Positions 20,998 to 25,763 of a DNA stretch of 64,000 nucleotides are shown piece by piece. The notes under the pieces were generated by a model. That model was given only the letters and a program-made list of their open reading frames with translations. It was not told the origin of the DNA and ran no database searches. The position numbers and the translations under genes are program-made. Within the stretch, counting starts at the first letter, position 1. Every line of letters begins with the position of its first letter. The stretch spans positions 53,590 through 117,589 of the forward strand of contig CAWAWV010000006.1 of assembly GCA_963785875.1 (NCBI GenBank), written 5' to 3'. Source of the DNA: an uncultured Thermoleophilia bacterium. Its GTDB lineage: Bacteria; Actinomycetota; Thermoleophilia; Gaiellales; Gaiellaceae.

Positions 20998-21402
20998 TCA
21001 GGCTGCAGCGACCTCCTGCGTGCAGAACGCGCAGCGGCGCGCGCCGATCGGGATCTGGCTCAGACAGTGGGGGCACTCTCGCGTCGTCTCGTCGACCGGC
21101 TGCTCCGTCCGGTAGCGCTGCATGAGCGCGTTCACCGGCCTGACGACCAGGAAGAACACGACTGCGGCGATCACGACGAACGAGATCAGCGCGTTGAAGA
21201 ACGACCCGTAGAGGAACCGGCTGCCGTTGATGCTGAACGTCAGGCTCGCAAAGTCTTGCTGCCCGCCGATCGCGGCGATGAGAGGAGTGACGAGGTCGGC
21301 CACGAGCGCCGTCACGACCGCACCGAAGGCAACGCCGATCACGATGCCGACGGCCATATCTACGAGGTTGCCGCGAAGCAGAAACTCCTTGAAGTCCTTC
21401 AA
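20998..21402 (-). CDS. mscL: Large-conductance mechanosensitive channel MscL with C-terminal zinc-ribbon
   Basis: The call comes from ORF 20998..21432. The likely start is TTG 21402, with AAGGAGG 5 nt upstream. The N-terminus LKDFKEFLLRGNLVDMAVGIVIGVAFG is the canonical MscL N-terminus. The tail is ECPHCLSQIPIGARRCAFCTQEV. Confidence 0.85.
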   Translation of the reverse strand: MKDFKEFLLRGNLVDMAVGIVIGVAFGAVVTALVADLVTPLIAAIGGQQDFASLTFSINGSRFLYGSFFNALISFVVIAAVVFFLVVRPVNALMQRYRTEQPVDETTRECPHCLSQIPIGARRCAFCTQEVAAA

Positions 21403-21538
21403 CGTGACCTCCTTGGACGATGACCGGCGCATCCTTCCACCAGACAGAAGTCTGCGCAGCTCCGGTCGATTCGCGCCCTGCCCGTTCGTCGTCTGGGAGA
21501 CGGTCGGATCTGCCGGCCGCGACCGAAGGAGGAGTTAC

Positions 21539-21886
21539 ATGCCTCACCCAGTCGTCCACGCCGAGATCAGATCAGCGGACCCTGATGCGACCAGGCGGTT
21601 CTTCTCGGAGCTCTTCGGGTGGCGCTATTCGGACGGCGCCTACCCTGGCTATACCTTCGTCGACACCGGCGTCGACGGCGCGCTACCGACCGCGATCAGC
21701 CCGCTCCAGGCCGATGAAGATGCCGTGCTGTTCTTCATCGGGGTCGAGAACGTCGCCACGACGCTCGAGCAAGCAGAACAGCTGGGCGGCCGAACGGTGC
21801 AGGCAGCGCAAGAGGTCCCGGGAGTCACCTTCGGCGTGTTCGCCGATCCCCAAGGGCACCTCGTCGGTGTCGCTTCGACCTCGTAG
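21539..21886 (+). CDS. VOC-family (glyoxalase/bleomycin-resistance fold) protein
   Basis: ATG 21539 is preceded by GAAGGAGGAG. The 115-aa product reads MPHPVVHAEIRSADPDATRRFFSELFGW..GVFADPQGHLVGV. It is intact. Confidence 0.75.
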   Translation: MPHPVVHAEIRSADPDATRRFFSELFGWRYSDGAYPGYTFVDTGVDGALPTAISPLQADEDAVLFFIGVENVATTLEQAEQLGGRTVQAAQEVPGVTFGVFADPQGHLVGVASTS

Positions 21887-21953
21887 AGCGACCGACAGAG
21901 CCTCGGGGGCGCCGAGCGAGCCGGCGTCCCTCGAGGTGCTCGCCCCCGCGCCG

Positions 21954-22196
21954 TCACCACCGGCGCGGCTCGGCACGGATACTCGTCACGACACCGTGCT
22001 CGTCGACCGAGACCACGAATCGAGCTCGGTCGCCACCCTGTCCGAACAAGCGCTTGACGGAGTAGAGACTTCGAGGGCGCACCAAGATCGCCTGAAGAGC
22101 CGTCCGTGTCTCGATCGAGTAGCCGTCGGCCTGACGGTCTTCGAGAAACGCGTCGAGCGCCGCAGACCGCTCGTCCCGGATCGCCGCCTCGCTCAC
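21954..22196 (-). CDS. Hypothetical protein (80 aa), last gene of a cold-shock-domain-led operon
   Basis: This is an intact ORF with GC3-rich codon usage. Its ATG overlaps the upstream stop (ATGA). I recognise no family. Confidence 0.5.
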   Translation of the reverse strand: MSEAAIRDERSAALDAFLEDRQADGYSIETRTALQAILVRPRSLYSVKRLFGQGGDRARFVVSVDEHGVVTSIRAEPRRW

Positions 22197-22585
22197 CGCT
22201 CGAGTGCCTCCCCCAGCTCGCCGCGGATGAGCACCGTCACGGCGAGCGCCCTGAGGTGGACGATCAGCTGCCGCTCCGTTCGCCAGAACGCGCCGTCGAA
22301 CTCGTCGGGACGGACCACGAAGCCGCTCTGCCGAGAACCGATGTGGAAGAAGATCGTCTCGATCTCTTCCCGGTCGGAGCGCAGCACGATCTCCTGGAGA
22401 CGTTCGTCAGGCTCTCCCCGGTCGAGGCGACCGGACACGACGCCGGCGATGAATGGCGGTCCCTCCGCGCCCGAGAACAGCACGAGCACCTGTCGGCCGA
22501 TCAAGCCGAGCAGTGCATTCAGGGTTTCCTCGTAGTTGAGCTTCGCCGACGCGTCCGGATCCGTCGCGCCAACGAAGCGCGTCAC
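22193..22585 (-). CDS. Hypothetical protein (130 aa)
   Basis: This is an intact ORF. Its GTG start overlaps the stop of the 58-aa ORF (GTGA), and its stop overlaps the next start. I recognise no family. Confidence 0.55.
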   Translation of the reverse strand: MTRFVGATDPDASAKLNYEETLNALLGLIGRQVLVLFSGAEGPPFIAGVVSGRLDRGEPDERLQEIVLRSDREEIETIFFHIGSRQSGFVVRPDEFDGAFWRTERQLIVHLRALAVTVLIRGELGEALER

Positions 22586-22758
22586 TCCGCGGCCTCGCCC
22601 GTCTCCTCATCCGGCTGGTCTTCTGACGGGTACGGGTCGGTGCCCTCGAGGCGCGCAGCCGTCCGAGCGTCCTTCTTCGCCTGTTTCAGCTCGCGCTTCT
22701 CACGAAGGGCCTGCTCTCGCGCCCGCTTCATCGCGGACTGCGGGCTGCGTCTGCCCAT
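22582..22758 (-). CDS. Small charged protein (58 aa), not in the supplied ORF track (below length cut-off)
   Basis: My own translation gives MGRRSPQSAMKRAREQALREKRELKQAKKDARTAARLEGTDPYPSEDQPDEETGEAAE. Its ATG shares one nt with the upstream CSD-gene stop (TGATG). Its stop overlaps the next GTG. Confidence 0.4.
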   Translation of the reverse strand: MGRRSPQSAMKRAREQALREKRELKQAKKDARTAARLEGTDPYPSEDQPDEETGEAAE

Positions 22759-23003
22759 CAGCGGCGACCACGCGAGCGGGCGCGACGTTCCGGCATCAGC
22801 GGGAGCACCGTGACGTTCACCGCACGCGCGTCGTCGAGTTCCGCGCCAACACGCTCAAAACCGACCCGCGTACCGCGGCACCCGTCTTGGAGCACCAGTC
22901 CCGGCCCAAGACCGCTGTCGTCCACCCGTAGCCGCTCGCCTTCGTCGGTGCGGATGAACCCGTGCCGTTTCGCGGGGTTGAACCAGATCATCGTCCCCTG
23001 CAT
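22758..23003 (-). CDS. Divergent cold-shock-domain protein (81 aa from ATG 23003)
   Basis: The call comes from ORF 22758..23021. AAAGGAG lies 5 nt before ATG 23003. The product reads MQGTMIWFNPAKRHGFIRTDEGERLRVDD, an RNP1-like CSD core. The C-terminal half is atypical, with a basic tail RRARSRGRR. Confidence 0.7.
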   Translation of the reverse strand: MQGTMIWFNPAKRHGFIRTDEGERLRVDDSGLGPGLVLQDGCRGTRVGFERVGAELDDARAVNVTVLPLMPERRARSRGRR

Positions 23004-23025
23004 CGACGCTCCTTTCAGCACCCGT

Positions 23026-23053
23026 GGCCGCGGAGACAGATGCCTCCGCGGCC
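23026..23053 (-). terminator. 10-bp perfect hairpin between cspA and the second CSD gene
   Basis: The sequence is GGCCGCGGAG-acagatgc-CTCCGCGGCC. It starts 10 nt after the cspA stop. There is no U-tract, so it may attenuate rather than fully terminate. Confidence 0.4.
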
Positions 23054-23062
23054 CGGTGCGTG

Positions 23063-23266
23063 CTAGACGGTGACGACGCTCTTCGCCTCAGGGCCTTTCG
23101 CCCCATCGACCGCGTCGAACTGCACCTGCGCCCCCTCCGGGAGCGACTTGAAACCTTCGGCAACGATCGACGAATGGTGGACGAACACGTCCTTGCCACC
23201 GTCGGCAGGGGTGATGAACCCATACCCCTTCGCATCGTTGAACCACTTCACGGTTCCGGTTGCCAT
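23063..23266 (-). CDS. cspA: Cold-shock protein CspA family (67 aa)
   Basis: The product reads [74 protein letters not shown] lies upstream of ATG 23266. The rest of ORF 23063..23431 is 5' leader. Confidence 0.92.
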
Positions 23267-23400
23267 AAAAACACCTCCTTCAGCCACGAAAGAACGGGCA
23301 GAGGAAGCGCACATCGCGCAACCGGTACTCGCTCGAATTCGCCCGCATCGTAGCAGCCGAGCGAAAAAATGGCTTCGGCATGGTAGGGGGCGATGGGTCA

Positions 23401-23434
23401 GGTGTGGGCGCCGCCACCGAGCGGCGCCCACACC
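23401..23434 (-). terminator. 14-bp perfect hairpin between pobA and cspA (pca/pob operon terminator and/or csp leader structure)
   Basis: The sequence is GGTGTGGGCGCCGC-caccga-GCGGCGCCCACACC. It lies ~80 nt after the pobA stop and ~135 nt before the cspA ATG. Confidence 0.45.
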
Positions 23435-23512
23435 TCGAGCCGTCGAATGGTCCTACCGGGCGACACAAGCTTCATTGTGTGAGGGCCTCTAAAAGGGGCC
23501 CTGAGCGATCTC

Positions 23513-24696
<1,184 letters not shown>

Positions 24697-24700
<4 letters not shown>

Positions 24701-25763
24701 CCGTCTCTCGCGAGCACCGCGCTGCGCGATCGCGAACGCGCGGTTCGCCGCGGGCACGCCGCAGTAGATCGCCGCCTGCAGCAGCACCTCCTTGATCTCG
24801 TCGGGCGTCAGCCCGTTCCGGAGCGCGGCGCGCACGTGCAGCGCGAGCTCCTCGTGGTGGCCGAGCGCGGTCAGCGCGGTCAGCGTGATGCAGCTGCGCG
24901 TGCGGCGGTCGAGCCCCGGCCGCGCCCAGATCTCGCCCCACGCGTACCGGGTGATCAGGTCCTGGAAGTCGCGCCGTGAAGTCGGTCGTCGTCGTCGATC
25001 GCGCGGTCGACGTGCTCGTCGCCGAGCACCTCGCGCCGGACGCGCATCCCGCTCGTCGTCGCTCATCAGCTGCTCCTCCAGCAGTCGGTTGAACGCCGTG
25101 CGGCCGGCCGCTCGACGTTCGCGAGGTGCGCGGCACCGTCGATCACCGCGAGCCGCGCACCCGGGATCCGCGCGGCGAGCGCGTCGGCGTGCGCCGGCGG
25201 CGCGGTCGGGTCCTCGGCGCCGGCGACGACCAGCGTCGGCGCCTCGATGCGCTCCGAGGTCGCTCGCGCACGTCCCAGCCGGCGAGCGCCTCGCAGCAGC
25301 GTGCGTAGCCCTCGGCGGTCGACGGACGGAACATCTCCCGGCAGCGCGCGACGTCGCGGAACGACGCGGCGTGAACCAGCGGCCGATGACCGCGTCGACG
25401 ATCGCCTCGAGCCCCTCGCGCGCGCACGGTCGCGGCGCGTTCGTGCCAGCTGCGACGGCGATCGCCGAAGCGCGAGGACGTGCAGGCGAGCACGAGCTGG
25501 TCGAGCCGCTCCGGGCGCGTCGGCGGCGAGCCGCATGCCGACGGCGCCGCCGAGCGAGAGGCCGACGAACGAGAAGCGCCCGTCGACCGCGTCGAGCACG
25601 CCGCGCCGGCGAGCGCGTCGACGTCGAACGGCCGTCGACGAGCGGCGCGCCGCCGTGGCCCGGATGCTCGACCGACCGACCGCGGAGCCGCGACGAGCGC
25701 GCAGGCCTGCGGTCGCCACATCGCGGCGGTCGAGCCGAGCGAGCCGCAGAGGACGACGGTCAC
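24697..25763 (-). pseudogene. pcaL: 3-oxoadipate enol-lactonase joined to 4-carboxymuconolactone decarboxylase (PcaL-type fusion likely), frameshifted
   Basis: The N-terminal alpha/beta-hydrolase part reads VVLCGSLGSTAAMW, FSFVGLSLGGAVGMRLA and APTLVVAGAEDPTAPPAHADALAARIPGARLAVIDGAAHLANVERP. It then reads AFNRLLEEQLMSDDE with no stop, running into the CMD domain (RYAWGEIWARPGLDRRTRSCITLTALTALGHHEELALHVRAAL.NGLTPDEIKEVLLQAAIYCGVPAAN). Confidence 0.75.

Follow-up and report, generated by a model that had tools for sequence, protein, structure and literature searches.

The locus described here occupies positions 21954-23266 of the 64,000-nucleotide stretch of DNA that was analysed (the window). 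It carries five genes, all on the minus strand, and is best read as a lineage-specific accessory module of the cold-shock system. The source genome and its relatives belong, by their source names, to the Gaiellaceae (Gaiellales, Thermoleophilia, Actinomycetota). The locus consists of a canonical cold-shock gene, cspA, a second gene with a divergent cold-shock domain (CSD), which we call the CSD-like gene, and three small genes, p58, p130 and p80; every element listed in the initial annotation was found where it had been placed. Stated in full, our favoured reading is that this is a real operon restricted to the Gaiellaceae and tied by its position to cold-shock genes, that its products would act on RNA or ribosomes in concert with cold-shock proteins and DEAD-box helicases when cells meet cold or a related stress, and that it would be expressed by read-through. 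We give this reading, taken as a whole, about an even chance of being right. The RNA or stress role within it is suggested by gene neighbourhood and by protein composition.

Coupling and conservation of the gene cluster

The window is very GC-rich and contains many spurious overlapping open reading frames (ORFs), 51 of them with at least 30 amino acids (aa) within 5 kb, so that an open frame by itself means little here. In comparisons with syntenic relatives, changes at third codon positions exceed the mean of the first and second positions 3.2-fold in cspA (31 sequences), 2.1-fold in the CSD-like gene (26), 1.8-fold in p58 (33), 2.1-fold in p130 (44), and 1.6-fold in p80 (23). Identity among relatives of the module proteins ranges from 45 to 98%, and cspA is 85-96% identical across most syntenic loci. 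Alignments of p130 hold 47 invariant columns among 22 sequences, each of which is 61-82% identical to p130, while p80 has 16 invariant columns and p58 has 12 in 22 orthologues, all of them inside the first 31 residues. The codon-level pattern and the invariant columns show that all five frames are real genes, under purifying selection.

The four genes behind cspA are tightly packed. The CSD-like gene (22758-23003) meets p58 (22582-22758) at a TGATG junction with a 1-nucleotide (nt) overlap, and GTGA junctions with 4-nt overlaps connect p58 to p130 (22193-22585) and p130 to p80 (21954-22196), as had been noted initially. An in-frame GTG at 23021 would extend the CSD-like protein from 81 to 87 aa, and the relatives begin at the position equivalent to the ATG. 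Across loci, the CSD-like/p58 overlap is 1 nt in 19 of 24 cases, with directly abutting genes in four more, and the 4-nt overlaps recur in 27 of 32 cases for p58/p130 and in all 18 for p130/p80; start codons were picked nearest to the expected position, which slightly favours these conserved values.

Conservation of the gene order was assessed in two sets of loci. The first comprises the 46 public loci that hold p130, all of them in metagenome-assembled genomes (MAGs) labelled Gaiellaceae, Gaiellales or Thermoleophilia, and was scored with a profile of each protein. The complete order csp-CSDlike-p58-p130-p80 was observed in 13 loci and in one more with a frameshifted CSD-like gene. It is followed by csp-CSDlike-p58-p130 (six loci), csp-p58-p130-p80 (five), p130 alone (four: L021, L023, L027 and L055), CSDlike-p58-p130 (three), and csp-p130-p80, csp(-)-csp-p58-p130 and p130 then p58 (two each), the other orders being eight singletons. 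Within about 1.4 kb of p130, a CSD gene is found in 38 of the 46 loci, p58 in 37, the CSD-like gene in 26, and p80 in 24; these counts are lower bounds, as contig ends cut L019, L029, L035 and L055. In L008, L050 and L052, p130 is followed rather than preceded by a p58-like gene, which is longer than p58 (70 aa in L008 and L052), so the linkage of p58 and p130 survives a change in order.

The second set contains 30 loci found by p58, our own locus included, and in 25 of these a CSD gene adjoins p58. As many as 22 of the 30 do not carry p130, and a CSD gene is still present in 17 of them, as cspA-CSDlike-p58 in nine, with p58 and the CSD-like gene in reversed order in three, and as cspA-p58 in five. 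Taken together, the gene orders of the two sets show that the module is not one fixed unit: a CSD gene and p58 form an older, widespread core, to which p130 and p80 were added later and optionally in a subset of lineages. The expectation that the arrangement would be conserved in relatives was thus confirmed, and so was the translational coupling of the proposed four-gene operon; its fixed composition was not, since p130 and p80 are optional and the CSD-like gene has been lost or has decayed in several lineages.

Decay of the CSD-like gene was seen directly in two loci. In L011 (L011:3051-3289), it is split by a frameshift, and in L042 (L042:3265-3339), it has been cut to a remnant of 24 codons in which nothing but the N-terminal WF motif and the Arg-rich tail is left. 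The genes p58, p130 and p80 remain intact in both. The frameshift and the remnant indicate that the CSD-like gene is dispensable. We also found two copies of the module on different contigs in several genomes (L025 and L036 in one MAG, L029 and L035 in another, and genomes G273 and G242), which points to duplication within genomes.

The distribution of the partner genes was counted in 301 whole genomes of the order, own genome included, of which 175 belong to the same family and 26 to the same genus. The most common is p58, in 103 of the 301 (100 of 175 in the family and 20 of 26 in the genus); the order's other four families contribute 1/37, 1/14, 0/9 and 0/65. Next comes p80, with 66, 57 and 15 genomes at the three levels, and then p130, with 17, 12 and 8. 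Three genomes flagged as unpublished (G206, G281 and G083) are part of the p58 tally, and one (G206) of the p80 tally; no other result depends on them. Many of the same-genus genomes without p130 are 90-99% complete, so its patchiness is not merely a matter of missing assembly. In a phylum-wide sample of 400 genomes, a distant relative of p130 was detected in only 6 others, five in other families of the class and one marginal.

Small, overlapping and patchily distributed genes are typical of toxin-antitoxin and defence systems, and CSD proteins are effectors in some retrons. It could therefore be proposed that the four short genes, with their overlapping stop and start codons, are a toxin-antitoxin or anti-phage defence cassette that was placed after cspA by chance. 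The presence of p130 in only 8 of 26 same-genus genomes would fit such a proposal, as would a weak PADLOC match of p58 to the candidate family PDC-S16 (E 0.0031). However, there was no other PADLOC or PHROGs match, and a scan of the flanks, which took from either side of the module the closest ORF with 90 codons or more, filtered these by codon-position GC and compared them with Pfam (79 ORFs, E <= 1e-5), returned no integrase, transposase or phage family, so that neither a known defence system nor an island context was found. Moreover, p58 comes close to being universal in the genus and is also common across the family, the place beside cspA is stable across genera, and neither a reverse transcriptase nor a retron RNA was detected in 21000-24500. 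We consider a defence cassette very improbable. A Retron Se72-type effector was tried as a separate candidate and rejected, with cspA scoring 53.5 bits against the cut-off of 82 for NF038236, no match for the CSD-like protein, and no reverse-transcriptase family in a Pfam scan of six neighbouring ORFs.

The two cold-shock genes and the hairpin between them

The first gene, cspA (23066-23266), encodes 67 aa and is the textbook cold-shock protein that it was said to be. It matches the Pfam CSD family (PF00313) at positions 3-66 of 67 with E 2.3e-28 and 98.3 bits, far above the cut-off of 27, and its best NCBIfam match is "transcription antiterminator/RNA stability regulator CspE" (E 3.3e-32), at 110 bits, under the 120-bit equivalog cut-off. 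The legend of Figure 1 in PMC7825780 gives RNP1 ([YF]-G-F-I) and an aromatic/His RNP2 stretch as cold-shock-protein motifs; in cspA, these read Y-G-F-I and F-V-H-H. The Rfam cspA thermoregulator RF01766 was also matched at 23023-23303 on the minus strand (56 bits against a gathering threshold of 78, E 9.4e-13); the match spans the coding region of cspA and only 37 nt of leader, and is probably due to similarity between coding sequences.

Between cspA and the CSD-like gene lies a 62-nt spacer, whose length is 56-68 nt in the 20 loci in which it was measured. Most of it (23016-23065) is taken up by a GC-rich stem-loop with a folding energy of -39.2 kcal/mol and a z-score of -4.0 against 200 dinucleotide shuffles. 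The hairpin described initially is therefore real, with a stem that proved longer than the 10 base pairs (bp) first reported, namely 12 bp with a 4-nt loop. When 23 spacers, that of the window included, were folded singly, each formed a GC-rich stem-loop in the same position, with a stem of 7-16 bp and differing in sequence, and z was below -2 in 19 of the 23 against mononucleotide shuffles. RNAalifold on a MAFFT alignment of the 23 spacers retained only 5 pairs, because the hairpins vary in sequence and length. The GC-rich stem-loop of an intrinsic terminator is thus present here and in the relatives; the run of U is not, as the 10 nt after the stem contain 0-4 U across the 23 loci, and the terminator scan made no call at this stem because the T run is missing. 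A ribosome-binding site, AAAGGAG (23009-23015), can be read in the sequence 5 nt before the ATG of the CSD-like gene, and relatives keep GAAAGGAG or GAAGGGAG at this position, about 10-15 nt downstream of the stem.

With the spacer filled by the hairpin and the ribosome-binding site, the layout appears to leave no room for a promoter between the stem and the CSD-like gene. Hence, where cspA lies upstream, the four distal genes would most likely depend on the cspA promoter, with transcription reading through the hairpin. This stem-loop might act as a partial terminator or as a 3'-end stabiliser, keeping cspA mRNA far above that of the distal genes. In E. coli, proteins of the CspA family are transcription antiterminators that melt such stems; by the same token, accumulated CspA could open the spacer hairpin and switch the distal genes on.

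Public transcript data were searched for the stretch. Twenty sequencing runs contained at most 0.13 of the words sampled from it. In the contigs of four metatranscriptome runs, compared at 85% likeness, very deep cover was confined to the conserved 5' part of cspA, where many organisms contribute, and cover of the N-terminal part of the CSD-like gene was light. None of the contigs listed for these four runs spans the whole stretch; a few joints in them skip sequence, and none of those runs across the spacer between cspA and the CSD-like gene.

As a single sequence, the CSD-like protein scores 20.5 bits against the Pfam CSD profile (E 4.4e-4, profile positions 1-63 of 66), below the cut-off of 27. 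A profile built from 22 orthologues matches 38 solved CSD chains at E <= 1e-3, the best being CspB (2.1e-8, query 2-66 to chain 3-65), and BLASTP aligns the protein to the adjacent cspA product with 37% identity (E 5e-7). These comparisons show homology to the cold-shock domain over its full length and agree with its first description as a second, divergent CSD gene with a recognisable core and a basic tail. No variation is seen at W7, F8, N9, K12 and G15, and very little at F16 and I17. RNP1 reads H-G-F-I in 18 of the 22 sequences, with Y or F at the first position in two and Q in one, and H-G-L-I in the last. The RNP2 stretch, by contrast, has been lost: where cspA has F-V-H-H, the CSD-like protein has L-R-V-D, and the aromatic and His positions are gone, so that the full RNP1/RNP2 pair is absent. 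Other features of the protein include a nearly invariant Cys at position 42 and a conserved Arg-rich tail of about 15 residues with invariant R-A-R at 74-76 and R78. The protein is strongly basic, with an isoelectric point (pI) of 10.9 compared with 5.45 for cspA.

Three partner families without a name

The relatives of p58, p130 and p80 are all labelled hypothetical. At E <= 1e-3 in a set of 5.8 billion proteins, we counted 665 relatives of p130; those of p58 number 1595 and those of p80 1070, and none has a Pfam family. The proteins themselves match no Pfam, NCBIfam or PHROGs family (PHROGs at E <= 0.01), their profiles find nothing below E 0.4 among the sequences of the Protein Data Bank (PDB), and when each of the 22 members of the p58 and of the p130 alignment was compared with Pfam, no family matched more than one member. 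The view that these ORFs lie outside the housekeeping families is therefore upheld, and profile and structure searches for the 130- and 80-aa products gave no family and weak fold matches only. Thus, while the cold-shock gene and domain are well known, the three partner families are absent from Pfam, NCBIfam, PHROGs and the PDB.

In p58, a basic N-terminal part is followed by an acidic C-terminal part: residues 1-36 contain 13 K/R and 4 D/E, and residues 37-58 contain no K/R and 9 D/E. The basic part is conserved, and the acidic tail differs in length and sequence. We envisage that the basic CSD-like protein and p58 could form a nucleic-acid-binding or chaperone-modulating pair, with the acidic p130 barrel and p80 as accessory subunits. 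Complex prediction for p130 with p58, with alignment input, scored 0.00 in two runs made without controls, and we give this result no weight either way.

The third protein, p130, is acidic (pI 4.95) and rich in beta structure. An exhaustive profile search of 1.84 billion cluster representatives returned 69 matches at E <= 1e-3, of which only 6 reach E <= 1e-30, so p130 represents one tight family, surrounded by a thin halo of proteins with 27-35% identity and a length of about 100-135 aa. A Pfam scan of 21 profile matches found no family in 20. The exception is P0136 (272 aa), in which a p130 fragment (profile positions 72-119) lies between fragments of a response-regulator receiver and of a nucleoside hydrolase; it is most probably a chimera created in assembly and not a genuine fusion. 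Three distant members (P0172, P0179 and P0182), of 190-230 aa, have an N-terminal extension with segments that look transmembrane by eye, and the p130 domain may thus also occur in a membrane-anchored form.

An AlphaFold model of p130 (predicted local distance difference test, pLDDT, 78; predicted template modelling score, pTM, 0.73) consists of seven strands flanked by an N-terminal helix and a C-terminal helix, the latter predicted with low confidence; a further, short helix lies between strands 2 and 3. Foldseek found nothing in the PDB at E <= 1e-3. The top structural match is YojF (1njh), with Z 7.5 and a root-mean-square deviation of 3.5 over 95 residues at 8% identity, and YojF was also among the leads of a language-model search (score 0.86). 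For this aligner, however, a best Z of 7-8 is typical of models that have no true match, with a noise level of about 8, and the fold matches of the p130 model, all within that range, are leads and not assignments. The same applies to Hfq chains, matched with Z 4.0-4.2 over 56-65 residues.

According to one set of these leads, p130 would bind haem or another small ligand, like proteins of the HutX/ChuX type, and the operon would be a device for cofactor handling rather than for RNA. The matches concerned are 2ph0_A (Z 7.1), 3fm2_B, a putative haem-binding protein (Z 6.2), HutX (5exv_A, Z 6.2) and ChuS (4cdp_A, Z 4.7), yet all fall below the aligner's noise level and none reaches E <= 0.001 with Foldseek. 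Nor were haem-uptake or haem-degradation genes found in the flanks within the window or among the 79 flanking ORFs, and we regard this reading as very improbable.

The model of p80 (pLDDT 77) shows one long helix, a four-stranded sheet and a disordered loop. Its best structural match has Z 6.2, and Foldseek returned nothing at E <= 0.001, which does not imply a new fold. A second, stand-alone p80 paralogue exists in the source genome (G000:C5:367059-367265, locus L093:3554-3790, E 7.8e-20), adjoining an ANTAR-domain (RNA-binding antiterminator) protein and an SPFH/Band 7 protein, and stand-alone paralogues in three other genomes have unrelated neighbours. Overall, the neighbours of the p80 paralogues and of the distant p130 relatives are heterogeneous and offer no functional hint. 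A 130-aa ORF that follows the p80 paralogue in L094 was tried as a hidden relative of p130 and dismissed (hhalign probability 0.1); its translation is Arg-rich and in the wrong frame.

A more serious alternative is that these small proteins form a module for stress or regulation whose target is not RNA. The CSD-like protein would then be a degenerate oligonucleotide/oligosaccharide-binding (OB) fold that has been turned to protein binding, p130 a PH/EVH1-like adaptor for a peptide such as the p58 tail, and the linkage to cspA would reflect shared regulation only. The lost RNP2 residues are consistent with this proposal, as are the variable acidic tail of p58, which is typical of interaction or disordered segments, the p80 paralogues in unrelated contexts, and the weak matches of p130 to peptide-binding EVH1, Dcp1 and PH-like domains (Z 4.9-5.4, Foldseek E 0.017-0.13). 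These fold matches, however, lie within the aligner's noise as well, and the W, F, K and G-F-I residues of the nucleic-acid face of the CSD-like protein are invariant or nearly so, with the Arg-rich tail conserved beside them. The recurrence of DEAD-box helicase and CarD genes nearby, described below, also speaks for a role at the RNA level. We think a module that does not act on RNA rather unlikely, although it is a contender to be taken seriously.

Genomic context and comparison with known systems

Classic examples of cold-adaptation genes are those for cold-shock proteins, DEAD-box helicases, BipA and desaturases, and several of them recur beside the module. Among the flanking ORFs, DEAD-box helicases were found in 11 loci (L015, L023, L027, L028, L030, L032, L034, L038, L043, L051 and L052), both upstream and downstream and on either strand. 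CarD was found in 6 (L010, L036, L045, L046, L047 and L053) and HlyIII in 4 (L012, L015, L044 and L045), and BipA/TypA, an EF-G-like GTPase, a fatty-acid desaturase and a ketoacyl synthase in one locus each. Of the four loci with p130 alone, three are full-length loci, and in two of these (L023 and L027) the next gene encodes a DEAD-box helicase. It is this neighbourhood that lends weight to the initial suggestion of an RNA-associated or stress module, for which gene neighbourhood is the whole of the evidence; the suggested coupling to an RNA-binding CSD protein stands as far as the conserved overlaps are concerned, whereas RNA binding is not established, given the loss of the RNP2 aromatics.

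Several observations weigh against our favoured reading. Without the aromatic and His residues of RNP2, the CSD-like protein may not bind nucleic acid as cold-shock proteins do. The patchiness of p130 within one genus (8 of 26), even among near-complete genomes, is unusual for a core RNA-handling factor, and its distant relatives in other Thermoleophilia families have a CSD gene or p58 adjacent in 0 of 6 loci. Read-through cannot be the sole route of expression, as three loci carry CSDlike-p58-p130 without an upstream cspA. The neighbourhood counts overstate the support that they give, since related genomes are not independent, although the diversity of arrangements still speaks against a single inherited accident. 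Finally, none of the outer neighbours in the window (MscL, an NAD-dependent epimerase, a glyoxalase-like gene that converges on the end of p80, and an FAD monooxygenase) is related to cold.

The unrelated outer neighbours also indicate that the operon is bounded at both sides. Upstream of cspA, the FAD-dependent aromatic monooxygenase (23524-25066, minus strand) is itself split over separate ORFs, with the N-terminal positions of the FAD_binding_3 profile in 24434-25066, an ORF that also bears a CMD-family domain, and the C-terminal positions in 23524-23892; this split fits frameshifts of the sequencing type.

Cold-shock proteins are among the best-studied bacterial RNA chaperones, and, to our knowledge, few dedicated partner proteins are known for them. 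The Gaiellaceae are abundant and almost entirely uncultured soil actinobacteria, and we have found no published account of this operon, the literature on Gaiella and cold shock consisting, to judge by titles and the starts of abstracts, of community surveys. Here, three unnamed families are linked to cold-shock genes by position and by translational coupling, and one of them, p58, occurs in most genomes sampled from the family. Should the module indeed cooperate with cold-shock proteins and helicases, it would represent a new accessory layer of the cold or RNA stress response and a concrete place to seek RNA-chaperone partners in Actinobacteria; if it does not, these are still clean, conserved orphan families worth naming. 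Nothing in the locus is mechanistically surprising so far, and its moderate value lies in offering testable partners of cold-shock proteins in an abundant, uncultured soil lineage.

The locus can be compared with several known systems. With respect to the CspA family (PF00313; CspA, CspB and CspE), cspA is a standard member, and the CSD-like protein shares with it the whole domain, the W-F pair of strand 1, the lysine and the G-F-I of RNP1, while it departs from the family in its score below the cut-off, in the H at the first aromatic position of RNP1, in L-R-V-D for F-V-H-H, and in its conserved Cys, Arg-rich tail and basic character. The E. coli cold-shock islets, in which cspG and cspH occur with small genes such as gnsA and ymcE, are phage-derived cargo of one genus. 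They likewise seem to combine a cold-shock gene with a degraded copy of such a gene and with tiny genes whose function is unclear, but here p58, p130 and p80 have no Pfam match, and hence no sequence relationship to the islets, are translationally coupled in one operon, and are conserved across a bacterial family. As for YojF of B. subtilis (DUF1806), the best structural match of p130 and third in the Foldseek ranking (E 0.13), PF08830 matches neither p130 nor any of 22 members at E <= 1; YojF is itself uncharacterised, and in the literature on YojF and DUF1806, we found no paper that names YojF in its title or abstract.

Two further comparisons bear on how the module might work. Transcription antitermination that depends on CspA and CspE exists in E. 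coli, and the present locus may resemble that system in having a stable stem-loop directly after a csp gene, followed by distal genes that lack room for a promoter, with the difference that the stem here has no U tract. Eukaryotic Y-box proteins carry, C-terminal to their CSD, a domain in which basic and acidic clusters alternate. A similar CSD-basic-acidic logic can perhaps be recognised here by way of analogy, spread over the Arg-rich tail of the CSD-like protein and p58, although these are two polypeptides encoded by separate ORFs in different frames across the TGATG junction, instead of one polypeptide, and p58 finds no counterpart in the PDB. Actinobacteria are not known to have either Hfq or ProQ. 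A bolder proposal, which we consider improbable, would draw these likenesses together: the CSD-like protein, p58, p130 and p80 would then form a dedicated ribonucleoprotein chaperone complex of the Gaiellaceae, with a split, Y-box-like RNA binder, made up of a CSD with its Arg-rich tail and a basic-acidic polyampholyte, on a new Sm- or PH-like barrel, switched on by CspA-mediated read-through and filling part of the role of Hfq and ProQ.

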